A stretch of DNA of 64,000 nucleotides from a virus. Its lineage: Duplodnaviria; Caudoviricetes. Each line of letters starts with the position of its first letter. Position 1 is the first letter of the stretch. The stretch lies in IMG/VR virus record IMGVR_UViG_3300011116_001227. One strand, written 5' to 3'. The translations under genes were made by a program, and so were the position numbers. The notes beneath the pieces are model-generated. The model did no database searches. It was not told the origin of the DNA and worked only from the letters and a program-made list of their open reading frames with translations. Below, piece after piece: positions 39,288-64,000 of this stretch.

Positions 39288-40247
39288 ATGATAATTTCAA
39301 GATGCCCAGTAAGAGTTTCTTTAGCCGGTGGATCAACTGATCTAGATTTATTTTTGCAGAAGTACGGCAAAGGAACAGTTATTAGTTTTTCTGCAAACAT
39401 TTACAATTATATCACTCTTAAATCTGACAGAATGGGTCTTAATGGATTAGAGAAAAAATATGTAATTGATTACATGAAAAGAGAAGTGACTGATTCTATT
39501 GAAGACATTAAAAACGATGTAGCAAGAATTGCATTAAGACATTTTAATGTTGATCCTACGACTGTTTGGTTTACAAGCGACATATATGCATCAGGTTCAG
39601 GATTAGCATCATCGACATCTTATCTAATTGCTTTAATTAATGCAATTCAAACATCACTTAATTTAAACATGACAAGGAGAGAATTGTGTCAAATCTCTCA
39701 TATGCTTGAAAAACAATTCAATCCTTTGACTGGTTACCAAGATCCTTATAGTTGTGGCACTGGTGGTTTTAATAGATTTGACTTTAGTAATAATGGAATA
39801 GTCAGAATAGAAAACCTTAATACAGATATTTTTGATAATTTTGATGCATATCTGGTGCACACGGGCCAAGCAAGAAGTTCAACTGATGTTTTAAAAACAA
39901 TAGATCCTGATAAGTGTCTAAAGTTATTAGACACAGCTGAACAAATGCATCGGTGTATTTTAAGCAATGATTCTAAAGGTGTTCTCGAGCTGATCAAAGA
40001 AGGCTGGCTAATTAAAAAGTCTACTGGCAAAATTGCCGAAGATAAACGCGTTATTGATCTTGATGACATATTAGAGAACGATAAATCTATTTTAGCGCAC
40101 AGGCTTTTAGGCGCAGGAAACGGTGGATATTTTTTAGCATTTGCCAATAAAAATTCAAAAATTGACGACTTGCAAGATAAAACAGGACATCAAATGGTTA
40201 AGATAGACATTTGTCATGCAGGACCAACTTGCATGCAGGTAAGGTGA
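39288..40247 (+). CDS. hddA: GHMP kinase, D-glycero-alpha-D-manno-heptose 7-phosphate kinase-like
   Basis: CPVRVSLAGGSTD, GSGLASS, GYQD, LLGAGNGGYFL; adjacent to gmhA. Confidence 0.85.
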   Translation: MIISRCPVRVSLAGGSTDLDLFLQKYGKGTVISFSANIYNYITLKSDRMGLNGLEKKYVIDYMKREVTDSIEDIKNDVARIALRHFNVDPTTVWFTSDIYASGSGLASSTSYLIALINAIQTSLNLNMTRRELCQISHMLEKQFNPLTGYQDPYSCGTGGFNRFDFSNNGIVRIENLNTDIFDNFDAYLVHTGQARSSTDVLKTIDPDKCLKLLDTAEQMHRCILSNDSKGVLELIKEGWLIKKSTGKIAEDKRVIDLDDILENDKSILAHRLLGAGNGGYFLAFANKNSKIDDLQDKTGHQMVKIDICHAGPTCMQVR

Positions 40248-40248
40248 T

Positions 40249-40746
40249 ATGAATATTGTTGATGTCATTGAAGCATGCAGTAAATTAGATCACAATAAAC
40301 TCAATAATCTATGTGATCTTATTAAATCAAAATCAACCATAATAATCTTGGGCAACGGAGGCAGCAATGCAATTGCAAGTCACATCTCACAAGATTACAC
40401 TAAGAAATTAAAAAAAAGATCTTTTACTTTTTCAGACCCTTCCAGACTAACTTGCTATATTAATGACTATGGCATGGAAGAAGCTAATCGTCAATTTTTA
40501 AGAGAATTTTCAGATTCAGATTCTTTAGTCATATTAATTTCTTCATCAGGAAATTCAGTTAATATTTTAAATTGTGCAGATTACTGTGTAGAAAAGTCTA
40601 TTGATTTTGTTATACTCACGGGATTTGATCAAAACAACAAACTAAGAAATTATTCTTCTTTAGCAAAAGAAGAATTTTGGATTGATTCAAAAGACTATGG
40701 TGTTGTAGAATGTGTTCATCAACTAATTCTACACGTGCCTGCATGA
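40249..40746 (+). CDS. gmhA: Phosphoheptose isomerase (SIS domain)
   Basis: GNGGSNAIASH, NDYG, ISSSGNSVNI, LTGF. Confidence 0.85.
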   Translation: MNIVDVIEACSKLDHNKLNNLCDLIKSKSTIIILGNGGSNAIASHISQDYTKKLKKRSFTFSDPSRLTCYINDYGMEEANRQFLREFSDSDSLVILISSSGNSVNILNCADYCVEKSIDFVILTGFDQNNKLRNYSSLAKEEFWIDSKDYGVVECVHQLILHVPA

Positions 40747-41072
40747 TCTATTGTTTTGATATAGACGGAACAATTTGTTCTTCAGTAAAAAATAGCGATT
40801 ATCAAAAGGCCGAGCCTTTTAAAGATGTAATTGATGAAATTAATCATCTTTATGAAAGCGGTCATAAGATTATTTTTATGACTGCAAGAGGATCAGTGTC
40901 AGGAAAAGACTGGACAGAACTAACTAAATCACAGCTAAAAAAATGGAATGTCCAGTACCACGAGCTAATCATGAATAAAAAACCGCATGCTGATTTATTC
41001 ATTGATGACAAAGCTAAGAATATTGTAGATTGGAGACGGGAAATACATGAAAAAAAGAGTTCTAATTATTGA
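40743..41072 (+). CDS. Small HAD-family phosphatase (capsule-biosynthesis type)
   Basis: Likely start ATG 40743: MIYCFDIDGT, MTARG, KPHADLFIDD. Confidence 0.8.
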   Translation: MIYCFDIDGTICSSVKNSDYQKAEPFKDVIDEINHLYESGHKIIFMTARGSVSGKDWTELTKSQLKKWNVQYHELIMNKKPHADLFIDDKAKNIVDWRREIHEKKSSNY

Positions 41073-42090
41073 TCCTCAGAAACATTTTCCTCTTGCGGTC
41101 AAAATGTTCGATAATGCTGATTATTTTTCTCCAAGAATAGATCTTAGCAAGATTCCTACAATACAACCTGTAATGACACATGCCCGTGCAGAAGAATTGT
41201 ATGGCGTAAAAATTCTTGAAGAAGAAGATGTCACAGGTGAATATGACTTAGCTGTCATTGTATGGGCTATCAATTCTCTAGGTGACTGGTTAGATGCAAG
41301 AATTCAATGTATGGTTCCAACTACAGTTTCTAACCTAACAGATCTTGAAGAAAGACAAGAATTATTTCACAGCATCTACAAGTTAATAAAAAAAGTTCAG
41401 CCAAAAAAAGTTGTATTTTTTGATGGTAATGATTCTCCTCTTGTAGGCAAAGGCCTAAAGTGGCTTGATGACAACGATTATCAATGTGATGCTGTTTTTA
41501 AAAGAGAATATAGAAGAACTTATGCTTACGACTACGACAATAGAATTCATCCATTTCCTTTTCTAGGCGGCAGTCGTGCAGATCCTTGGTTCCTCTTTGA
41601 AAAGAGGGTCAAAGGAAACGAAGGAATTATGGGATGTTTTTGGTCGGGTGCTCCGATACATAGATTTCAACCTGAAAGACCTGATGAGTGGTGTAATCGT
41701 AGAGACTTTTTGGCAGAAGTCCAAAACTTTTTGGTAATAAAGTCAGGTTTGCCGCAGGCTGAATTCTTAAATCAATTCAATCAATATAAATTTTTTCTTC
41801 ATCTGAACGGTACGGGCCATCTTTGCGGAAGATTTTTTGAAGGTTTATCTAGAGACTCTTTAATGATCATGCAAGAGATGGATGTAGTTTTTCCTTTTGA
41901 CAAAGGAGAGAATTTTCATAAAAAATGTGTCGTTAAAACACCAAGAGAATTTATTGAAAATTTAATAGAATTAGCAAATAATCCTAAGCTCTATGATGAA
42001 TGCAAGAATATTCAAGAACTCATTGTAGAAAAATATTACAATTACGAATGGATTAAAAATTACGTTTTTGAGAAATCTAATGCTTTATGA
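41047..42090 (+). CDS. Glycosyltransferase-like protein
   Basis: FDGND, FKRE, LHLNGTGHLCGRFFE; similar motif layout to 35634-36533. Confidence 0.55.
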   Translation: MKKRVLIIDPQKHFPLAVKMFDNADYFSPRIDLSKIPTIQPVMTHARAEELYGVKILEEEDVTGEYDLAVIVWAINSLGDWLDARIQCMVPTTVSNLTDLEERQELFHSIYKLIKKVQPKKVVFFDGNDSPLVGKGLKWLDDNDYQCDAVFKREYRRTYAYDYDNRIHPFPFLGGSRADPWFLFEKRVKGNEGIMGCFWSGAPIHRFQPERPDEWCNRRDFLAEVQNFLVIKSGLPQAEFLNQFNQYKFFLHLNGTGHLCGRFFEGLSRDSLMIMQEMDVVFPFDKGENFHKKCVVKTPREFIENLIELANNPKLYDECKNIQELIVEKYYNYEWIKNYVFEKSNAL

Positions 42091-43186
42091 TTATGTGATA
42101 GTTGGGTCAGGCCTCTTTGGCGCAATATTCGCTAGAGAAATGACAGATTCGGGAAAGAAATGTCTTGTCATTGACAAACGTGATCACTCAGGCGGTAATG
42201 TTCATTCAGAACAAATTGAAGGAATTCACGTAAGCAAATATGGCGGTCACATATTTCATACGAATGATGAAAGAATCTGGAACTATATAAATAGATTTGC
42301 AAAATTTGATTCCTATCACCACCGCCTTCGCGTGCATTACAAAGAAAAGCTTTATTCTTTTCCCATAAACTTAATGACATGTTACCAGTTGTGGGGGTGT
42401 CGTACGCCAGAGGAAGTTGAACTTCAACTCAATAAGGTAAAAATTCCCATAGATAATCCAAAAAATCTAGAAGAATGGGCATTATCACAAGTAGGACAAG
42501 AGATTTATGAAACATTTGTCAAAGGCTACACACAAAAACAGTGGAACTTAGATCCTAAGAATTTACCAGCTTCTATAATAAAGAGAATACCGATTAGAAC
42601 AAATTACGATGATTGTTATTTCTCTGACAAATTTCAAGGATGGCCATCTAATGGTTATTCAGAAATATTTGATAATTTGCTTAAAGGAATACGTGTAGAA
42701 TTATCAACTGATTTTTTTAAAGATCGCTCTTACTTCGAGAAGATTGGAAAGAAAATAGTCTACACAGGAAAAATTGATGAATATTTTGATTATCTACACG
42801 GAGATTTGTCTTATCGATCACTTAGATTTGAAAATAAGATTTTAGATCAGACTGATTTTCTTGGATGTGCCACTGTGAATTACACAGAATTAGAAGTTCC
42901 TTACACAAGAATTATTGAACACAAGCATTTTCAGCCTCACAGAGTTAGTTTAATACAAAAAACTCTTGTTACTTACGAATATCCTGACGACTGGAATAGA
43001 AGCAAGGTCCCTTATTATCCTGTCAACAATGACGTTAATAATGAGATTTATAGAAATTATCAAGAAGAAACTTTAAAATTGGAAAATGTAATTTTTGGTG
43101 GAAGGTTAGCTGAGTACAGATACTATGATATGCATCAGGTTGTTGGATCAGCATTAAGCAAATCATTAAAAGAATTAAGCAAATGA
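42080..43186 (+). CDS. glf: UDP-galactopyranose mutase
   Basis: VGSGLFG, GGN, YGGHIFHT, EPYYP-like KVPYYP, GRLAEYRYYDMHQ; likely start ATG 42080. Confidence 0.93.
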   Translation: MLYDYVIVGSGLFGAIFAREMTDSGKKCLVIDKRDHSGGNVHSEQIEGIHVSKYGGHIFHTNDERIWNYINRFAKFDSYHHRLRVHYKEKLYSFPINLMTCYQLWGCRTPEEVELQLNKVKIPIDNPKNLEEWALSQVGQEIYETFVKGYTQKQWNLDPKNLPASIIKRIPIRTNYDDCYFSDKFQGWPSNGYSEIFDNLLKGIRVELSTDFFKDRSYFEKIGKKIVYTGKIDEYFDYLHGDLSYRSLRFENKILDQTDFLGCATVNYTELEVPYTRIIEHKHFQPHRVSLIQKTLVTYEYPDDWNRSKVPYYPVNNDVNNEIYRNYQEETLKLENVIFGGRLAEYRYYDMHQVVGSALSKSLKELSK

Positions 43187-43602
43187 AAAAAGGACTTATA
43201 GCAGGATCCTTTGATTTGATCCACCCAGGCTACGTTAGAATGTTTAAAGAATCTAAAAAGATATGTGAATATCTCATCATAGCACTTCAAGATGATCCAA
43301 CAATTGAAAGATCTTCTAAGTGTAAGCCTGTTCATACGCTAGAAGAAAGAAAAGAAATTTTAAGTGCTTTAAAGCACGTTGATGATGTTGTAACATACAC
43401 CTCTGAAAATGAGTTATATGAACTTCTTAAAAATCTAGAGTATGATGTACGAATACTGGGCATCGAATACAAAGAAAAAAATTATACAGGAAAAGATTTA
43501 AACAAACCAGTTTATTGGTTAGACAGACCTCACGCTTATTCAACTACTAGTTTAAAAGAAAAAATTTATAAAGAGCGATCGGAGTTTAAAAAGAAATTAT
43601 GA
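43183..43602 (+). CDS. Cytidylyltransferase-fold nucleotidyltransferase (TagD/HldE-C-like)
   Basis: GSFDLIHPGY (HIGH-like), R-x4-STT (RPHAYSTT). Confidence 0.85.
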   Translation: MKKGLIAGSFDLIHPGYVRMFKESKKICEYLIIALQDDPTIERSSKCKPVHTLEERKEILSALKHVDDVVTYTSENELYELLKNLEYDVRILGIEYKEKNYTGKDLNKPVYWLDRPHAYSTTSLKEKIYKERSEFKKKL

Positions 43603-44576: not shown

Positions 44577-45395
44577 ATGCAAGATACAAAATTATCTTTT
44601 GAGTCTCTTCCCACGGGTAAGCCTCATGTTTCTTTTTCAGAAGTCAAACTCTGGAAAGAATGTTCCTATCGTCACAACTTAGTTCATATCAAAAAAATTG
44701 ACCTGTCAAAACCCTCTCCTGTTTTAGACTTTGGTACTGCAGTTCATGCGTCTTGTGAACATTATCTTCTAACAAGAGAAATGAAGCCAGAAATTGCTTT
44801 TGAACACATGGAAAAAGCTTGGGCCAAGCATGCAGGAAATCCAGATTTTAGCCCCGCTGCATTAGAAAAATCAAAGAAGGAAGTTGAAGCGATTCTTTCA
44901 GAAGTTCCAAAGTTTCTTGATGAAACATTCGAGGAATGGGAAGTTGTCGATGCAGAACATCAACTCTATGAAGCAGTAGAAAATCATCCTCATGCTTTTA
45001 AAGGCTTCATTGATGGTGTTATTAAATCAAAAGGAAAAAGAGGAGAAACATTGTACTGGATCCTCGACTGGAAAACTACTGCAAGAGGATGGATGAGAGA
45101 AAAAAGATCAGACGAAATGGTCAAATCTCAATTGGCTCTCTATAAGAACTTTTGGTGTAAAAAAAATCCTGATGTTCCTTTCAAAAATGTCCGCTGCGGA
45201 TTCGTGCTCCTGAAGAAATCAGCCAAACTAGGAGATCATTGCGAGCTATTCTCTGTATCAATGGGAGATGTTCCCGTAAAAAGATCACTTAAAGTCGTTA
45301 GCAACATGTTAACTTCTGTAAAACGAGGAGTTGCATTAAAAAATCGGGATGCTTGTACGTGGTGCGAATATAAAGGCACCGAGCACTGCACTTAA
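44577..45395 (+). CDS. Cas4/AddB-like PD-(D/E)XK nuclease with four-Cys Fe-S staple
   Basis: N-terminal ECSY, GFIDGV, LDWKT, QLALY, C-terminal CTWCEYKGTEHC. Confidence 0.8.
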   Translation: MQDTKLSFESLPTGKPHVSFSEVKLWKECSYRHNLVHIKKIDLSKPSPVLDFGTAVHASCEHYLLTREMKPEIAFEHMEKAWAKHAGNPDFSPAALEKSKKEVEAILSEVPKFLDETFEEWEVVDAEHQLYEAVENHPHAFKGFIDGVIKSKGKRGETLYWILDWKTTARGWMREKRSDEMVKSQLALYKNFWCKKNPDVPFKNVRCGFVLLKKSAKLGDHCELFSVSMGDVPVKRSLKVVSNMLTSVKRGVALKNRDACTWCEYKGTEHCT

Positions 45396-45399
45396 AAGC

Positions 45400-45705
45400 T
45401 TTGAAAGATAAAGAATACTTTGGGGATATTGTGTCGTTTCAAAAAAGCTTCTTATAGAATTTAATGGCGATTATTGGCATTGTAATCCTCTAAAGTATGA
45501 ATCAAGTTTTTTTATCAAGTTAAAAAATTAAAAGCTCATGAAATATGGGAAAATGATGCTAAAAGACTTGAAACAATTTCTGAATTAGGGTATAGAATAC
45601 ACATTATATGGGAGAGCGAATCCAAGAATGGATCTTGGGTTGATAAGCTCGATCGTTGGCTGGAGGAAAATGCAAAAGAAAACAATACTAATGCTATCAG
45701 ACCAT
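45400..45705 (+). pseudogene. Frameshifted, 5'-truncated Vsr-like (EDxHD) endonuclease remnant
   Basis: Three frames: KEYFGDIV / KKLLIEFNGDYWHCNPLKY / QVKKLKAHEIWENDAKRLETISELGYRIHIIWESE; one shift at T7 run 45507-45513; overlaps GT exon 1. Confidence 0.8.
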
Positions 45706-47181
45706 CCGTGAACGACTACAGCTCAGCGGATGTAAAATTGGGTGAATTGCTGGAAAGTCATGGAACTAACACCACAACGCAACTGGAAACGGTAGACGTG
45801 AAGGTTTGAAAAGTTAGAGCTATATGACAATCAGCAGCCGAGCTCCTGTGAAGAAATTCTGGAGAAGGTTCAGAGACTACGGTTAGCCTAAATCGAAAGA
45901 CATGGTAATGATCCGACAGCGCCCAACACCAATTTGGTGATGATATAGTCCAAACTTCATAAATAAGTGAGCACGTCGGGTGTCGGAACTCAAGCGCGCT
46001 GGTTAGTTCAAGGTTTAACTAGCACTGGCAAATATAGCTTTAGATGTTTTGGCGGAGCAGTAAGACACGACAACTACGATACTGTCGCAGTCGATCCAGA
46101 TTTTATTATAAAGCCAACAGATGGATTTGGCGATAAGAATCTGCTTAGAAAAACTCTTGCGCAAGTAAAACCTGATGCAATTTTGTTGTTTACCGATCCT
46201 AGATTTTTTGTTTGGGTCTGGGAAATGCAAGACGAAATTCAACAAGTATGTCCAATAGCATACTGGCACTTGTGGGACAATCCACCATGGCCAGACTACA
46301 ACAAGGTTCTATATGAGTCAACTGATCTGATCAATTGCATTAATTATCCGACTTATGAGATGGTCAAAGAAAGATTTCCAAATAGAACAAATTATATACC
46401 TCACGCAGTTCCAAAAGATCTTTATAAACTCATTTCAAAAGAGGAGTCAATTCAATTCAAGAAGCGTCTTCTAGGTAATGAAAGAGCTGATCATTTTACT
46501 GTGTTGTATGTTTCAAGAAATGCTAGAAGAAAGATGACTGCTGATATTCTTGTATCTTGGAAGCTATTTCTTAAAGATCTTCAAGAAAAGCACGGTCACA
46601 CAAAAGCTTCTATAATCATGCACTGTGATCCTCTTGATCAAGAAGGAACAAATTTACACAGTGTAATTGACATGCTGGGAATTAAAGAAAATACAATCTT
46701 TTCAAAGGATAGAATTGGTTTTGAAGACATGCGTGTTCTGTACAACATGTGTGATACAGTCGTAAATCGTTCTTCTAATGAAGGATTTGGTTTGCCAATT
46801 CTCGAAGCAAAGATGTGTGGAAAACCAGTCATATCTATTAAAACTGGTGGGTTAACACGTCAAGTTGAAGATCACATAACTGGCGAGCAATATGGAATTG
46901 GTCTTGATCCAGAAGTAAGCTCTATGGTAGGTAATCTTATGATTCCTTACATCTATGAAGACTTTATCTCTCATAAAACTCTTTCTGAAGCTTTTATGAA
47001 GATGTATGATTACGGTCCTGAAAAGAGAGAAGAGATTGGTCAGAGAGCAATGAAGCATGCACACAGAGATTACGATCTTGATGCTGTCGTCGCTGAATGG
47101 GACAGGACTTTAATGAATACAATAGAGAACTGGAAAGATCCAGCCACGAAACCTGCAACATGGGAAATGAAGGTGCTCTGA
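45670..47181 (+). CDS. GT4-family glycosyltransferase, spliced: join(45670..45709,45968..47181)
   Basis: GGAGG SD then MQKKTILMLSDHP; splicing restores DHPLSTSGVGTQAR; NEGFGLPILEA. Confidence 0.88.
45710..45967 (+). ncRNA. Group I self-splicing intron, 258 nt, no internal endonuclease ORF
   Basis: Core motifs GAATTGCTGGAA, AATCAGCAG, CAGAGACTA (45871), GATATAGTCC; P1 CATCCGT/GCGGATG with terminal U-G; P10 GCTCA/TGAGC; P3 TTGGGTG/CGCCCAA; terminal G 45967. Confidence 0.93.
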
Positions 47182-57996: not shown

Positions 57997-60900
57997 ATGG
58001 CAGCAAAAATAGGATCAATCAGCTCACCATCTTACGTTAAGTCAATACAGCAAGATGCTAAGCCTATACAACTTACTGCCGAAGACATCAAGTCATTAAA
58101 TGAGTCTGTAGATTTTAGTTCTGGTGATTGGGACTTTAAATTTGATCCAATCAATTATCCTCTAAAAAGTACACAACAATTAAACGTTGACTGGTCTAAA
58201 TTTGAAAATCATACGTTCTTTTCTTCTGCTGAAGTAAAAGTCAACGAAGCTTTTAATCTTATCATTAATAATTTTCCATTCGACGGAACAAAAAAAGAGA
58301 TTCAAACTTTTCTTGACAAGTTGACAGGATTTGAAAAATACGTCTACGATAATTTTCCCGTGTGGTCGGGAGCTCTCCAATTTTCTGGCACTAAAGTAGG
58401 TGAAGATTTCAACGGAACGAAAGGAAGTTGGATATCTGTAAAAGACAAATCAGGTTATCTTTATCCAGATATATCTAAAAACAACAAGGGCGAAGTTATC
58501 ATTAATCCTGATGCGTCGGGATCGATTTCTATTGAAACGCTCGTTTATCTTCCGACGATAACAAATTCTACACAAGTTATTTGTCAGAAACAGTCTTCAC
58601 CTAACGATGGTTTCACATTATACTTGAGCCCAGATGCGTCTGCAAGTTACGCAACTGCAAGCTTTAGTATTTCTTCAGGATCTTCAAAGCTCAACACTTC
58701 TGCAGTGTTAAAGAAGGGAGCTTACAATCATATTTGCGTAGTTTTTAATAGAGAAGAAAATTTTCCTGATGCAAATTTACAATTTTATGTCAATGAAAAA
58801 TTAATTTCAACAAGCTCAAACGTGATGAGCTTTGGTAAATTGGACATAGACAATTCAGACTTCTTGATAGGAACTGGCAGCGCATTTTATTACAATAACT
58901 CACTAGTTACACCTACACAGACATTTAGCGGAACACTAGATGAATTTAGACTTTTTCACAGCGTTAGGTCTGTAGAAAAACAAAAATTATACTTTGATAG
59001 AGGAATCTATTCAACACCTGATTTAAAGCTGTATTACAGATTTAACGAACCACCTCCTCTTCTATCTTTGATAAATGAACAAGAAGCAGTCAACTCAATA
59101 GTTCTTGATAGCTCTGGTAATTCTTTACATGCTTATGTTAATAATTTTACAGGATCTTTAAGAGTTAACTCTGCTCTAGACACATTAAATCCTGTATCAA
59201 ATGAGAAAAGAGAATTTACTGTCGTTTTATTTCCAGCTTACGATGAAGTCAAAAATTTAAACGCTAACTTGCTGTTGACGGCAAGTCTTTATGATCAAGC
59301 AAATCCCAACTACATTGTCAAATTAATACCAAAACATTATCTTCTTGAGGGAGCTGACGACGAAGGATATTTCAATGCTAATGGAAATGCAGGAGATGCA
59401 TACTCAGGGTCTGGAATTCCTGGTCAAGGTCAAAAGGGATCGACTCATATTATTCTGACATTCTTGTACATTTGGTCGAAATTTTTCGACGACATCAAGA
59501 TGTTTGTCGACGCATTTGGTACTTTAAAGACGGTAGGTTATGATTTAAATGAAACCACGCCCGATGCTTTCTTAACTGACTTAATAAAGAGCTACGGCTT
59601 TTACTTACCTTCTTTTTTTAATCATGCAGACATAAACAAATTTTCTGATGACGATGACACAGGTCAAACAACTCAGTATACAACAGGTTTAGCATTCAAG
59701 AAAGTACATTCTCAAATAATGAGAAGAGTCATTGTAAACATCAATGACTTTGTGAGATCAAAAGGAACGAAGCACAGCATCAGGTCTTTCTTGAGATCAG
59801 TAGGAATTGATCCCGACAACAGCCTCAAGATTAGAGAATTCGGTGGAAATACAACGAAGCAGCTTGGAGCATCAAGAAATAAACGTTTAGAATCACTTCC
59901 TATTGTAGACTTTACAAGCGCTTCAATAGCATTATCGTCGCCTCTAACGGCGTCAAGAATAGAACCAGGATTTCCAACACCGTCAGGACAATTTGTTTAT
60001 TCCGATAATCACATTGTGGGAACAACAAATTCTTCAGATGGTCTTCTCACTTCTGGATCGTGGTCTGTAGAATGCAATTACAAATTTCCTCCTTACAAGA
60101 TCGATGTAATAGGAAATTCAAATCAGTCCTTACTGAGAATGGTTGTAACAGGCAGCAATGCATATGCAAAACCAGGTCTAATTACAAACATAATCGCAAC
60201 TCAAAAAACAGTCACTGAACCATCGACAATTACAGCTTATGTAAGACCCGGTTCAGCTGTTGATTCTCCAACGCTTACACTTTCTTTAAATCTTTCTGGT
60301 TCTGGAATATTCGATGGAGAAAGATGGAATATTTCTTTTGGTAGAAAGAGATCAGATGAGTTTGGTTTAAATTATTTATCTTCTAGCTATTTCTTAAGAG
60401 CAGGCAAGTCTAATTACGGAGACGTTGAAGAAGTCTATACAACTTCACAATTCTTCCACGAGAAAAAATCAACAGAAGCTAACATCTTTGAAGTTTCTTC
60501 TCCTTTGTATAATGCGTCTGGTTCTTATATCTCTATTGGATCAGATCAAACAATTCCTACGTCGATTTTGTATCCTTATCTGAATAATACTGCAGAAGTA
60601 TCAGACGAAGCTAGAACAACGTCGTTCTATGGTTGGACTTCACACTTAAGATTCTGGTCTAAATTTATAGATGTAAACGAATGGAAAGAACACGTAAGAA
60701 ATTACAAATCTGCAGGTGTTTCTAATCCAAAAGTAAATTATAACTTCGTCACTAATGTTTCTGGCTCTTTCAATAAATTGAGAATGGACACTTTCTCAAA
60801 ACAACCAGTAAGAGACGCAGATAATACTGGAAAAATTATCTTTGTTGACCACAGCTATAATAATCTTGTTATGACAGGATCAGCATTTGGATCCGGATCT

Positions 60901-61512
60901 AATGTCGTGATCATCGGCGACGTAGGATCTTACAGCTACTTGTCACCTGATTTTGATGAGGCTTCTACTGATGAAAAAGTTAGAATTAGAGGTCTAAGTC
61001 AGTCAAGCAATCTAGATGAAAATCCTTATGCGTCTATCGGACCAGCTTACTCGAGCAACGAATCCTTTATGAAAGAAGAGCCGAGTGATGATACGCGTTT
61101 GTCGGTAGAATTTTCTCTCACTGATGCTCTTAATAGAGACATCATAACAATGTTTTCAGATCTTGATGTTCTTGGTGACGCAATTGGAAGACCTGAAAAT
61201 ATGTTTTCTTCTGACTATCCTGATCTTGACGTTCTAAGAGACGTTTATTTTAATAGACTTACTGAAAATCTTAATTTTAGAAACTTCTTGGAATTTTATA
61301 GATGGTTCGATTTGTCAATATCGTCTTTTATTGAGCAGTTAATTCCCGGGAAGACTCGCTATAAAGGAACTAATTTCGTTATAGAATCTCACATGCTCGA
61401 GAGACATAAACGAGAATTTAGACACAGCGAGAATTATTTAGGTAAGCAACAAATTGTAAGTGCAGATAAGTTACTACTGCAGCAAATAGCAGGCGAACTT
61501 AAAAAGTACTAG
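57997..61512 (+). CDS. Large baseplate/tail protein with LamG domains
   Basis: YNHICVVF, FSGTLDEFRLF, KLYYRFNE, DSSGNSLH, VRSKGTKHSI, IESHMLER. Confidence 0.6.
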   Translation: MAAKIGSISSPSYVKSIQQDAKPIQLTAEDIKSLNESVDFSSGDWDFKFDPINYPLKSTQQLNVDWSKFENHTFFSSAEVKVNEAFNLIINNFPFDGTKKEIQTFLDKLTGFEKYVYDNFPVWSGALQFSGTKVGEDFNGTKGSWISVKDKSGYLYPDISKNNKGEVIINPDASGSISIETLVYLPTITNSTQVICQKQSSPNDGFTLYLSPDASASYATASFSISSGSSKLNTSAVLKKGAYNHICVVFNREENFPDANLQFYVNEKLISTSSNVMSFGKLDIDNSDFLIGTGSAFYYNNSLVTPTQTFSGTLDEFRLFHSVRSVEKQKLYFDRGIYSTPDLKLYYRFNEPPPLLSLINEQEAVNSIVLDSSGNSLHAYVNNFTGSLRVNSALDTLNPVSNEKREFTVVLFPAYDEVKNLNANLLLTASLYDQANPNYIVKLIPKHYLLEGADDEGYFNANGNAGDAYSGSGIPGQGQKGSTHIILTFLYIWSKFFDDIKMFVDAFGTLKTVGYDLNETTPDAFLTDLIKSYGFYLPSFFNHADINKFSDDDDTGQTTQYTTGLAFKKVHSQIMRRVIVNINDFVRSKGTKHSIRSFLRSVGIDPDNSLKIREFGGNTTKQLGASRNKRLESLPIVDFTSASIALSSPLTASRIEPGFPTPSGQFVYSDNHIVGTTNSSDGLLTSGSWSVECNYKFPPYKIDVIGNSNQSLLRMVVTGSNAYAKPGLITNIIATQKTVTEPSTITAYVRPGSAVDSPTLTLSLNLSGSGIFDGERWNISFGRKRSDEFGLNYLSSSYFLRAGKSNYGDVEEVYTTSQFFHEKKSTEANIFEVSSPLYNASGSYISIGSDQTIPTSILYPYLNNTAEVSDEARTTSFYGWTSHLRFWSKFIDVNEWKEHVRNYKSAGVSNPKVNYNFVTNVSGSFNKLRMDTFSKQPVRDADNTGKIIFVDHSYNNLVMTGSAFGSGSNVVIIGDVGSYSYLSPDFDEASTDEKVRIRGLSQSSNLDENPYASIGPAYSSNESFMKEEPSDDTRLSVEFSLTDALNRDIITMFSDLDVLGDAIGRPENMFSSDYPDLDVLRDVYFNRLTENLNFRNFLEFYRWFDLSISSFIEQLIPGKTRYKGTNFVIESHMLERHKREFRHSENYLGKQQIVSADKLLLQQIAGELKKY

Positions 61513-61521
61513 GAGTGAACT

Positions 61522-62583
61522 TTGTCAAAAAATAACACAGTCCAGACAGAAAATTTAAATAACGGACAGTGGCCAGATTTATTTGGCTTTGACGAGACAC
61601 CTGTGTCTGCTGAAGTTTCATACTTCGTAATTGAAACAGACACCAATTATTATTCTACACAAAGACAGTTAGAAGCAGAAGCAAATCGAAAATTTTTAGA
61701 TCGATCTGCTGCACAATCTATTTCAGGATCAACTTCAGCGTCTAATTTCTTTTTAAATACTGCTAAAAAGTCAAGAACTACATCAAACGGATATCTTACA
61801 GGATCGATCATAGACAAATTCCGTCAAGGTGTAGAATTAAATCAAGCTTCACACTGGTCCGCAGGATTTTATAAAATTTCAGCAGGAACTCCGGGACATT
61901 TAATTGCACCCGTCAACTTCGGCATTAATGAATCTTATAATGTGACAAGCAATGATTATTTCGAAGAATTAAGCTTGTTTAATCCTATAGAGTTTATTGC
62001 GCTTCAAGACACAGACAAGCCGATTGATGAGATCATTACATTTCCAATTGTCACTTCTGATGCAAATCAGAGAGAAAACTACGTTCTAAATGGAGTGATC
62101 GAGCCTTTTCCAATTAGACCAATAATTTCTCAGTTTAGCATCAACTTTCCATTTGAACCGCATGGAGTTGTAGCCAACTTTGGAAATGGCAACCCTTTTA
62201 TGCGATCCTCGTCAGATAATGTCAGTCAAATATATGACTTTGATCCATTAAGAATTAATCAAAAAGTATTCTTGGATAACGGAGATCCAATTGTAATAAC
62301 AGACGAGAATGGAAATACAAGTTTGGAAATGGGTCCTAATTTGGCTTATATTTCTTGGGATCAAAATGTTAATGAACCTTTTGAAGATTCGATACCATCT
62401 CGAGGTGACGAATTAGAATCTACACGTCAATACGAGAGTGATCTGCTAGCAGCAGTCAGAGCAATGAGACCATTGAACACAACTTACTTAACAGCAAATC
62501 AAGTCTCTTCAAGAACGGGTTTTACTTACGATAACACTCTTCAAGGGGTCGATTCAATTGCATACGGAGGCTTGCTTCGCTGA
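61522..62583 (+). CDS. Hypothetical structural protein
   Basis: ORF coupled to next gene (TGATG). Confidence 0.5.
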   Translation: MSKNNTVQTENLNNGQWPDLFGFDETPVSAEVSYFVIETDTNYYSTQRQLEAEANRKFLDRSAAQSISGSTSASNFFLNTAKKSRTTSNGYLTGSIIDKFRQGVELNQASHWSAGFYKISAGTPGHLIAPVNFGINESYNVTSNDYFEELSLFNPIEFIALQDTDKPIDEIITFPIVTSDANQRENYVLNGVIEPFPIRPIISQFSINFPFEPHGVVANFGNGNPFMRSSSDNVSQIYDFDPLRINQKVFLDNGDPIVITDENGNTSLEMGPNLAYISWDQNVNEPFEDSIPSRGDELESTRQYESDLLAAVRAMRPLNTTYLTANQVSSRTGFTYDNTLQGVDSIAYGGLLR

Positions 62584-64000
62584 TGTCGTTCAAAGACAAA
62601 AAACTTCCTCCCAGCAGAGACTTTGATAAGTATTTTGCTAATTTTCAAAATGATCCATTCGCATCTTCAGTGGGTCTAAAAAGCATAAATCCAAATTCTT
62701 GGAATAGATTAGGTCCAATCCAGTCAAGCAGTCAGGGATATGTTGAGTATCTAGAAGAGCCTACAGCGTCATCTTCTTTAGACCCGGGAGGCAATACATA
62801 CGTCAAGTCTATTGGATTTGATTTTGAATTTGACGGAAAGACTTATTCTAATTTCATAGCAAGTCCACATGGCTGGATCGCACTTCTAGATCCAAGTGCA
62901 TCAATTGATTCGTCTAATCTAGACAAAATTTATAGTCAACGTCTTCTAGCAAGTGGAAGTAGCTCTTTTTGCAACACTTCAATTACATCATCTTTTGTAA
63001 ACAAAGATGTTTTTCTTGCACCTTGGTTTGACAGACTAATGATGACGCATAAAGATGCTGATTCGTTCATAACATTTTATTCTGGCACTGCTCCGTCTGT
63101 CGTCAGTCAAAGAGAAAATTTCTTGTATGGAAGATCTACAACAAAAGATCAACCATTTGATGAATTAACATCAGGTATGCGGTATGCTACAGTTGATGAT
63201 TCAGTCGATGGTAAATCTCTTGTAGTTCGTTGGTCTTCAATGGGATACGGATACAGAAATAAAAAATTAAATTTTGAAACAGCGATTTATGAAAATGGAA
63301 AAATAGAATTCAACTATGCACCTCTTGAATCTTATTCCACAGATTACACTCTTGTAAAGTTATCTGCTGATCCAAGCAGCGTTTGGAAATTAGATGATAC
63401 ATCGGCTTCTGCTATCGATTCTCGAGGAGTTCAAAATTTATCTCATAAGAATTCTGTTGCTTATAACGTAGACGGAAAAATATCTAGAGCAGCTTTCTAC
63501 TCAGGAAGTAGTACTTCAGTCACATACACAGGAAATTCAAGTTTTGCTGATTTTTTAGTAACAAATTCTTTTTCTTTCAGCGCATGGTTTAAAACTACAG
63601 ATTCTTCAAATCAGACTATTACAGGAAGAATGGCGTATGACTTCAGTAGAGGTTATTCTCTAAGACTGAGTGGCGGGTATATAGAATTTACTCTCAATAA
63701 GACGTGGAACACTTCTACGCTTCAAGCAAGATCTACATTAAATACTTACAATGATGGTCAATGGCATCACGTTGTTGTCACGTATAATGGAACTGCCACG
63801 CTAAGTGGAATTAAAATCTATGTAGACGGTCAGCAAATATCAACTACTGGTCCTTATACATCTTTGACAACAAGTGACAATATATCTTCCCCTTCTGGTC
63901 AAGGTAGATTTATGATTGGTGGGGTAGGAATTGACAACACAAACAACCAGCAATTTACAGGCTCACTCGATGACATTGCTGTGTGGTCTTCTGTATTGAC
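62583..64000 (+). CDS. LamG-domain tail/fibre-like protein (partial, runs off window end)
   Basis: Not in ORF track. MSFKDKKLPP..., later FSFSAWFKTT, YNDGQWHHVVVTYNG, IYVDG, FTGSLDDIAVWS in frame. Confidence 0.8.
   Translation, partial: MSFKDKKLPPSRDFDKYFANFQNDPFASSVGLKSINPNSWNRLGPIQSSSQGYVEYLEEPTASSSLDPGGNTYVKSIGFDFEFDGKTYSNFIASPHGWIALLDPSASIDSSNLDKIYSQRLLASGSSSFCNTSITSSFVNKDVFLAPWFDRLMMTHKDADSFITFYSGTAPSVVSQRENFLYGRSTTKDQPFDELTSGMRYATVDDSVDGKSLVVRWSSMGYGYRNKKLNFETAIYENGKIEFNYAPLESYSTDYTLVKLSADPSSVWKLDDTSASAIDSRGVQNLSHKNSVAYNVDGKISRAAFYSGSSTSVTYTGNSSFADFLVTNSFSFSAWFKTTDSSNQTITGRMAYDFSRGYSLRLSGGYIEFTLNKTWNTSTLQARSTLNTYNDGQWHHVVVTYNGTATLSGIKIYVDGQQISTTGPYTSLTTSDNISSPSGQGRFMIGGVGIDNTNNQQFTGSLDDIAVWSSVL

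Follow-up and report, generated by a model that had tools for sequence, protein, structure and literature searches.

The virus record IMGVR_UViG_3300011116_001227 (Duplodnaviria; Caudoviricetes) carries four genes that we read as a self-sufficient, phage-encoded route to a nucleotide-activated glycero-manno-heptose, a hybrid of the two bacterial routes; we put the probability of this reading at about 0.7. The window analysed is the whole 64,000-nucleotide stretch (64 kb), taken from a contig of roughly 210 kb. The predicted products are a sugar kinase of the GHMP family, a GmhA-like SIS isomerase, a small cap-less HAD phosphatase and a HIGH-fold nucleotidyltransferase (NT, 43183-43602), whose protein is recorded on a 210,040 bp contig. 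In the proposed pathway, the isomerase would convert sedoheptulose-7-phosphate into heptose-7-phosphate, and the kinase, which resembles HddA and WcbL, would phosphorylate O1 and most likely yield the alpha-1,7-bisphosphate. The 7-phosphate would then be removed by the small HAD protein and not by GmhB, and the NT, a member of a clade characterised by an HPGY motif, would take the place of HddC and join heptose-1-phosphate to a nucleoside triphosphate. The product could be used by the soluble glycosyltransferases (GTs) of the surrounding cluster, the first candidate being the GT4-like gene that immediately precedes the kinase, and its target would be cytoplasmic (virion proteins or the modified DNA of the phage). 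The combination of a heptokinase of the GHMP (alpha) type and a HIGH-fold NT, the HAD::NT fusion as a viral phosphatase and the HPGY clade itself appear to be undescribed. The presence of the cassette in the cultured Synechococcus phage SynMITS9220M01 and the existence of a related phage route that heptosylates DNA are already known.

Table 1. Coordinates of the pathway genes and of the features around them (positions in the 64 kb window)
Feature	Start	End	Strand	Basis or remark
Phage glycan-synthesis cluster holding the pathway	27723	48365	+	Pfam/NCBIfam scans
Syntenic block: GT47-like, methyltransferase, GT7C-like/unknown, short-chain dehydrogenase/reductase (SDR), GT-B, kinase, isomerase, phosphatase	33310	41072	+	tblastn
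Extended SDR, nucleoside diphosphate (NDP)-sugar epimerase/dehydratase	37330	38301	+	best model UDP-xylose-synthase-like, under cut-off
GT-B fold, GT4-like (retaining-type) glycosyltransferase	38298	39278	+	without Pfam match
GHMP-family sugar kinase, HddA/WcbL heptokinase group	39288	40247	+	Pfam GHMP_kinases_N and NCBIfam
GmhA-like SIS isomerase	40249	40746	+	SIS domain
Small cap-less HAD phosphatase	40743	41072	+	PF25109 / TIGR01689 (EcbF-BcbF) / 1xpj / 9iqw type
Probable GT-B-like glycosyltransferase (Glyco_trans_1_2 / RXYLT1-like)	41047	42090	+	unannotated
UDP-galactopyranose mutase (Glf)	42068	43186	+	exceeds NCBIfam cut-off
HIGH-fold (cytidylyltransferase-like) NT, virus-specific clade	43183	43602	+	Pfam CTP_transf_like PF01467
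Short NDP-sugar 6-dehydrogenase (UGDH-like)	43599	44540	+	overlaps NT stop by 4 nt

All open reading frames (ORFs) of at least 90 aa in the window were scanned with Pfam and NCBIfam models. An earlier note on this DNA had described contiguous hddA, gmhA and HAD genes, and these ORFs do follow one another on the + strand. The kinase finds its top NCBIfam model in HddA (NF049969; E 1e-20), with 74 bits against an equivalog cut-off of 600 bits that is not reached. Its four best solved relatives (3k85, 4n3o and WcbL 4usk/4usm; E 1e-16 to 1e-20) are all GHMP heptokinases, whereas other solved GHMP kinases reach only about 1e-4, at least 12 orders of magnitude worse. The GHMP motifs PxRxxLxGG, GSGLxSS and GAGxGG are intact in the window protein, 54 relatives share them, and JGI names many of the relatives D-glycero-alpha-D-manno-heptose-7-phosphate kinase. 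We therefore predict a D-glycero-D-manno-heptose-7-phosphate 1-kinase.

The models and structures matched by the isomerase are those of GmhA and its paralogue DiaA only, and every significant PDB match is to one of the two. The GmhA models TIGR00441 and NF001628 score 54-57 bits, short of their cut-offs of 209-265. Since no model or structure of an arabinose-5-phosphate isomerase is matched, an arabinose-5-phosphate route was rejected. Of the residues H61, E65, Q172 and H180 (E. coli numbering), which we take to form the catalytic and metal site of GmhA, the two histidines are kept, while E65 is replaced by Asp and Q172 by Glu; 59 viral sequences share both replacements. The protein is probably a sedoheptulose-7-phosphate isomerase.

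Like the other three genes, the HAD gene is real and intact, but its start has to be moved. The ORF spans 40710-41072; a start at M12 (40743) produces an ATGA overlap with the stop codon of the isomerase and aligns with the N-terminus MIYCFD[IL]DGT of three HAD::NT fusion proteins (alignment A1). On these two grounds the true start is almost certainly 40743. HAD motifs I-IV (FDIDGT = DxDxT, TARG, K and DD) are present and conserved in 61 sequences. The GmhB / HAD-IIIA histidinol-phosphatase-like model (TIGR00213) does not match the protein, which by its sequence would be a functional analogue of GmhB and not a member of that family; its predicted activity is that of a heptose-1,7-bisphosphate 7-phosphatase. 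The same family of small HAD proteins was found in 394 phage records, including carriers of arabinosyl-hydroxycytosine such as Acinetobacter phage Maestro. A literature search found no mention of PDB entry 9iqw.

The NT is the third gene after the HAD gene, with the 41047-42090 gene and Glf in between. The R-x4-STT motif ascribed to it by the earlier note is there (R115-x4-S120TT), but the “HIGH” motif reads H14-P-G-Y17 and not HxGH. The Pfam family PF01467 is matched with 45.3 bits (gathering cut-off 21 bits). The best NCBIfam model, rfaE_dom_II (TIGR02199), reaches 72 bits and remains below its cut-off of 181.5, and the (F/L)xxGxSTT motif is absent. The TagD model TIGR01518 (56.7 bits, cut-off 165.4) fails likewise, both on score and on the missing second histidine of HxGH. 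Still, TagD is the best single solved relative both by sequence (58 bits) and by fold, and a profile of the NT family scores 78 bits against ECT, 77 against TagD and 44 against HldC. The AlphaFold model (pLDDT 80.7) is Rossmann-like, with TagD, HldC, PPAT and CCT as top folds and HldC following three TagD chains, although the fold search does not separate TagD-like from HldC-like substrate use. The clade is thus, by sequence, closer to the CTP-using enzymes TagD and ECT than to HldC, in keeping with the TagD-type assignment originally made. The STTR5 motif, which Tang et al. connect with the use of CTP and UTP, is absent: an aromatic residue replaces its arginine, and an arginine stands at the TagD position, so that the nucleotide cannot be read from the sequence. 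CDP as the nucleotide is plausible and ADP possible, and we take the enzyme to be a putative heptose-1-phosphate nucleotidyltransferase.

The clade is defined by two motifs, HPGY and R-x-H-x-[Y/H/W]-STT, the latter being R-P-H-A-Y-STT in the window copy. Within the viral clade HPGY does not vary; it stands in 76 of the 84 viral or phage rows and, among the genome rows, only in the five that lie on phage-like contigs. The clade is monophyletic (support 100/100) with respect to cellular HPGH homologues. These homologues (about 30% identity; Kiloniella, Acidobacteriota and others) have HPGH together with HldC-like LxxGxSTT motifs and no cassette. In the tree, the window NT is placed among unfused forms that make up a basal, unresolved grade; most fused cassette forms fall into a well-supported clade of 64 rows.

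The evidence that the four genes work together, as had been proposed from the window alone, comes mainly from other viruses. An NT profile search of IMG/VR returned more than 577 related loci. Among the best 80 of them, the kinase is found in 48, the isomerase in 53 and the HAD in 54, and the gene order is almost invariably kinase, isomerase, HAD, NT; kinase, isomerase and NT occur together in 48 of these 80, mostly contiguously and as a rule with an SDR after them. When phage-like genome contigs are added, there are 52 compact cassettes, and 49 of these are adjoined by an extended SDR, which is GalE-like and scores 122-128 bits with the HldD model. HAD and NT form a single ORF in 50 of 60 loci. 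Metagenomes are very rich in such HAD::NT fusions (245-262 aa), whose clusters reach 2987 members, and a library-wide NT profile search gave 191 clusters (50% identity) at E 1e-30 or better. Longer members of the family include SIS::NT, larger-HAD::NT, NT::HAD, UGDH-like::NT, NT::methyltransferase and GT2::NT fusions. Across 55-61 viral homologues, each of the four enzymes keeps its catalytic motifs. Two further fusions, P0380 and P0385, join the NT to a SET domain or to cREC_REC (cyclic-phosphate processing receiver), and neither partner suits a sugar pathway. In about ten viral loci (e.g. L016:8419-9180), a class I S-adenosylmethionine methyltransferase gene lies between kinase and isomerase.

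In the window, the block from the GT47-like gene to the HAD gene is syntenic (tblastn) with at least five viral contigs (L070/L168, L167, L169, L166 and L020) where the NT is the next gene after the HAD; in these contigs the SDR is 74% and the GT-B enzyme 67% identical to the window. The separation of HAD and NT in the window thus reflects a local rearrangement, and the link holds here too. In GTDB genomes the cassette was found on phage-like contigs only, and a cellular origin was therefore rejected. Nucleotide-level searches of cultured phages gave almost no matches, and the window did not turn up in an exact-match scan of IMG/VR. SynMITS9220M01, which has a complete genome, carries the cassette as genes 204-207, with the fused HAD::NT annotated as “hypothetical protein”. 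A variant is present in cyanophage S-CAM1 (L170 / KU686192.1, 112719-115241), where an NT (33% identity) and a “carbohydrate kinase” are accompanied by the small HAD, under the name phosphoheptose isomerase, and by an SDR labelled heptose epimerase; a carbamoyltransferase gene and tail-fibre genes adjoin them. The second “nucleotidyltransferase” of S-CAM1 turned out to be unrelated.

Several points weigh against a heptose route. None of the four proteins comes near the curated cut-offs of the HddA, GmhA and RfaE-domain-II models, which makes them relatives rather than orthologues of characterised enzymes. The isomerase has Asp at the position of the catalytic Glu65. The second histidine of HxGH is required for catalysis in TagD, and the NT has Tyr in its place. 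The substrates and products of all cassette members are inferred. The NT is also found without kinase or isomerase, for example in a 100%-complete viral genome of 284 kb, and in the nearest relatives of the window it adjoins UGDH-like and Glf genes, so its substrate need not always be a heptose phosphate made by the phage. In that complete genome (G007, the record of L014; 138883-139662), the HPGY NT is flanked by ClpP and a helicase; neither a GHMP kinase nor a SIS isomerase was detected there, and a PfkB-family kinase is located about 30 kb from the NT.

The last two points bear on the explanation that survives best next to ours, namely that the NT stands outside the heptose route and either works with the UGDH-like dehydrogenase and Glf or is a TagD-like CTP:polyol-phosphate cytidylyltransferase, with host enzymes activating the heptose phosphates that kinase, isomerase and phosphatase provide. 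TagD and ECT are its nearest solved relatives, it abuts the UGDH-like gene in the window and in the closest relatives, a UGDH-like::NT fusion exists (P0393, 403 aa), and a complete viral genome has the NT but neither kinase nor isomerase. However, the fusion of HAD and NT in most of the loci, which makes sense only if the product of the HAD is the substrate of the NT, the SIS::NT fusion and the position of the NT directly after the HAD in the syntenic contigs all speak for a shared pathway. Cassette-linked members are, moreover, spread throughout the tree of the NT clade, the basal ones included. We thus consider an NT outside the route unlikely.

A second explanation, which we regard as somewhat less probable again, accepts the pathway but not the sugar: the cassette could activate an NDP-mannose-type hexose, or an aldose derived from another ketose phosphate by a divergent isomerase. 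The low scores of all four proteins and the E65D and Q172E exchanges in the isomerase would fit, as would the pairing of the NT with a phosphomannomutase in two loci and the fact that the same isomerase-kinase-HAD-NT logic makes UDP-arabinofuranose in other phages (PMC13326640). Against it, the isomerase matches GmhA and DiaA models and structures only, and not arabinose-5-phosphate or hexose-phosphate isomerases; heptokinases are a far closer match to the kinase than galacto-, fuco- or mevalonate kinases are; and a related phage set of HAD, kinase and cytidylyltransferase gives heptose by mass.

The earlier note had also found HddC and GmhB missing from the cassette and had suggested that the small HAD protein replaces GmhB. 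Both proposals gained support from wider searches. No PF00483 (HddC type), GmhB, PfkB or GT9 match was obtained in the window, a search that for this phage spans 64 kb of the roughly 210 kb contig. The same four families (GmhB as TIGR00213) are unmatched in a 94%-complete, 281 kb cassette-carrying viral record (G003), in which the kinase search, used as a control, did give a match. The complete SynMITS9220M01 genome has no match to a GmhB model and two weak PF00483 proteins near other SDRs and a second GHMP kinase. This kinase is distant (28% identity) and adjoins one weak PF00483 protein and two SDRs; the locus (L081 / MT408532.1, 154318-157124) may represent another module for sugar activation, of canonical type. 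The least probable alternative is the canonical route, in which the host or another part of the phage genome would provide HddC and GmhB (or HldE), and HAD and NT would have unrelated roles: although about 146 kb of the contig lies outside the searched window and the second kinase of SynMITS9220M01 has a weak PF00483 neighbour, the 94%-complete relative matches neither family, the fusions tie HAD and NT to the pathway, and the cassette is present in cyanophages, whose marine hosts are, to our knowledge, reported to be without lipopolysaccharide heptose.

Within the hybrid heptose route, the anomer is probably alpha, by analogy with other kinases of the family. All characterised GHMP anomeric kinases that we know of give the alpha-D (or beta-L) 1-phosphate, and the product is thus most likely the alpha-1,7-bisphosphate. 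Three weak and indirect arguments point the same way. First, in two loci without kinase and isomerase (L033 and L067), the gene immediately after the NT (10396-11097 in L033, and likewise placed in L067) encodes a phosphomannomutase of eukaryote type (PF03332, 85 bits), which is another way to an alpha-manno 1-phosphate. This arrangement suggests a mutase-based route to a manno-type sugar-1-phosphate for the same enzyme family and argues for such a compound as NT substrate. Second, retaining GT4-like GT-B enzymes use alpha-linked donors, and an enzyme of this type is encoded upstream of the kinase. Third, no inverting GT9 heptosyltransferase was found in the cassette phages.

The target of the glycan is best considered in the context of the cluster. 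It comprises at least nine glycosyltransferase-like genes, two to three methyltransferases, the SDR, Glf and the short UGDH-like gene, in tightly coupled reading frames that all lie on the + strand. The only transmembrane-like segment in the cluster proteins is an N-terminal stretch of Glf, which is the NAD(P)-binding Rossmann motif; there is thus no membrane protein among the enzymes. A cluster that consists of soluble enzymes only and adjoins baseplate and fibre genes fits virion glycosylation. DNA glycosylation is also conceivable in view of a preprint, discussed below, on heptosylated 5-hydroxymethylcytosine (5hmC) DNA. Assembly of a lipid-linked polysaccharide (O-antigen or capsule) is unlikely because the cluster encodes neither membrane proteins nor a flippase, a polymerase or an initiating transferase, and the cassette phages have no GT9 heptosyltransferase.

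Taken further, the data allow a bolder and more doubtful proposal, which we put forward tentatively: the HPGY clade might be a virus-specific HIGH-fold family that makes an undescribed nucleotide sugar, CDP- (or another non-GDP NDP-) D-glycero-alpha-D-manno-heptose, from the alpha-heptose-1-phosphate provided by a GHMP kinase via the fused phosphatase. If so, the sugar would be private to aquatic phages, for the decoration of virions or DNA, since host enzymes could neither make nor consume such a donor.

The remaining genes of the cluster show how the pathway may be embedded. The SDR lies two genes upstream of the kinase and is 74% conserved in the syntenic contigs. For the GT4-like protein, the candidate transferase for the pathway product, the AlphaFold model (pLDDT 76) gave MshA, WaaG, BshA and PimB' as top Foldseek matches, and all eight homologues found (8/8; the one in L055 is weak, with 26% identity) sit 0-1.3 kb upstream of the kinase. 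The 41047-42090 protein is probably a GT-B-like glycosyltransferase, as suggested by a protein language-model lead, and a homologue that is 66% identical occupies the same position in L020. Glf belongs to a different sugar branch within the same cluster. The UGDH-like protein keeps the catalytic GGSCFPKD motif, is without the C-terminal nucleotide-sugar-binding domain and is 62-64% conserved adjoining the NT in close relatives; it may oxidise the product of the NT. The cluster is interrupted at 44577-45967 by a PD-(D/E)XK nuclease gene and a 570 nt gap (no ORF of at least 50 aa), after which comes the GT4 gene at 45967. Elsewhere, the window encodes PhoH, a helicase, ClpP, a gp25-like baseplate protein and lectin-domain fibre proteins, as part of the genome of a large freshwater phage. 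The two large fibre-like proteins at 57997-63998 have Laminin_G_3 / concanavalin-like lectin domains, and one of them has a further match in the clostridial neurotoxin receptor-binding N-domain family, which shares this jelly-roll lectin fold; judged by these domains, they are probably carbohydrate-binding tail fibres adjoining the glycan cluster.

There are two textbook routes to activated heptose, and the cassette would represent a third, hybrid one. It would also supply the phosphatase that is missing from the viral reports, usually fused to the NT, and it defines a virus-restricted NT clade with an altered catalytic motif. Due to its abundance in marine and freshwater phages, many annotations are affected, for example “glycerol-3-phosphate cytidylyltransferase”, “phosphoheptose isomerase” for the HAD and “hypothetical protein” for the fusion. 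With SynMITS9220M01 as a cultured carrier, the chemistry and the glycan target (virion or DNA) are directly testable.

Among the known systems, the route to GDP-D-glycero-alpha-D-manno-heptose (GmhA, HddA, GmhB and HddC; S-layer of Aneurinibacillus, capsules of Campylobacter and Burkholderia) is alike in its first two steps and in its overall plan, in which an isomerase, a 1-kinase, a 7-phosphatase and a nucleotidyltransferase act in turn. Among the best solved relatives of the phage kinase are 4n3o, annotated as a putative heptose-7-phosphate kinase, and WcbL. The bacterial route differs in that the phage cassette has a small cap-less HAD and a HIGH-fold NT in place of GmhB and HddC, which has the NTP_transferase fold. 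The ADP-heptose route, with its HENases (HldE domain II and HldC), has a nucleotidyltransferase of the same fold family. However, its kinase is of the PfkB and not the GHMP type, its transferase has HxGH instead of HPGY and (F/L)xxG(R)STT instead of R-x-H-x-[Y/H/W]-STT, and the viral clade stands apart from the cellular HldC-like homologues. TagD (CTP:glycerol-3-phosphate cytidylyltransferase) is similar in size to the NT and shares R-x4-STT with its arginine at the same position, but its second catalytic histidine is Tyr in the NT, and the context and fusions of the NT point to a sugar-1-phosphate rather than glycerol-3-phosphate.

Viral enzymes of heptose activation have been reported before. 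According to two commentaries, Tang et al. (2024) found viral heptose enzymes to be functional and observed the formation of CDP- and UDP-heptose (PMC11573728, PMC11461863). One of the commentaries calls the heptose phosphatase “absent in viruses” (PMC11461863), whereas the cassette described here has a predicted phosphatase, usually fused to the NT. In the announcement of the SynMITS9220M01 genome, the kinase, isomerase and epimerase are listed as heptose lipopolysaccharide genes (PMC7378029), and “gmhA” has been treated as a marine viral auxiliary gene (PMC9238414). Similar in outcome is the phage “contig 53”, for which a HAD::APH-kinase, a cytidylyltransferase and a GT-B enzyme were all required in E. 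coli for mono- and di-heptose on 5hmC DNA (10.1101/2023.12.21.572611). There, too, a phage HAD, a kinase and an enzyme of the cytidylyltransferase fold feed a GT-B enzyme, and the sugar is a heptose by mass; the kinase, however, is APH-like and fused to the HAD, and there is no isomerase of its own. Identical in chemical logic is the phage route to UDP-arabinofuranose (arabinose-5-phosphate isomerase, AfhE kinase/pyrophosphorylase and AfhF; RB69-like, Acinetobacter and Serratia phages), in which AfhF, a homologue of the small HAD, takes the distal phosphate off arabinose-1,5-bisphosphate (PMC13326640). Many of these phages (e.g. Acinetobacter phage Maestro) have a member of the same small-HAD family with 32-43% identity, and 1xpj is a common structural relative. 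The arabinose route differs in its KdsD-like isomerase, its APH-like kinase, its transferase of MurU-like fold and its pentose, where the cassette described here would have GmhA-like, GHMP and HIGH-fold enzymes acting on a heptose.

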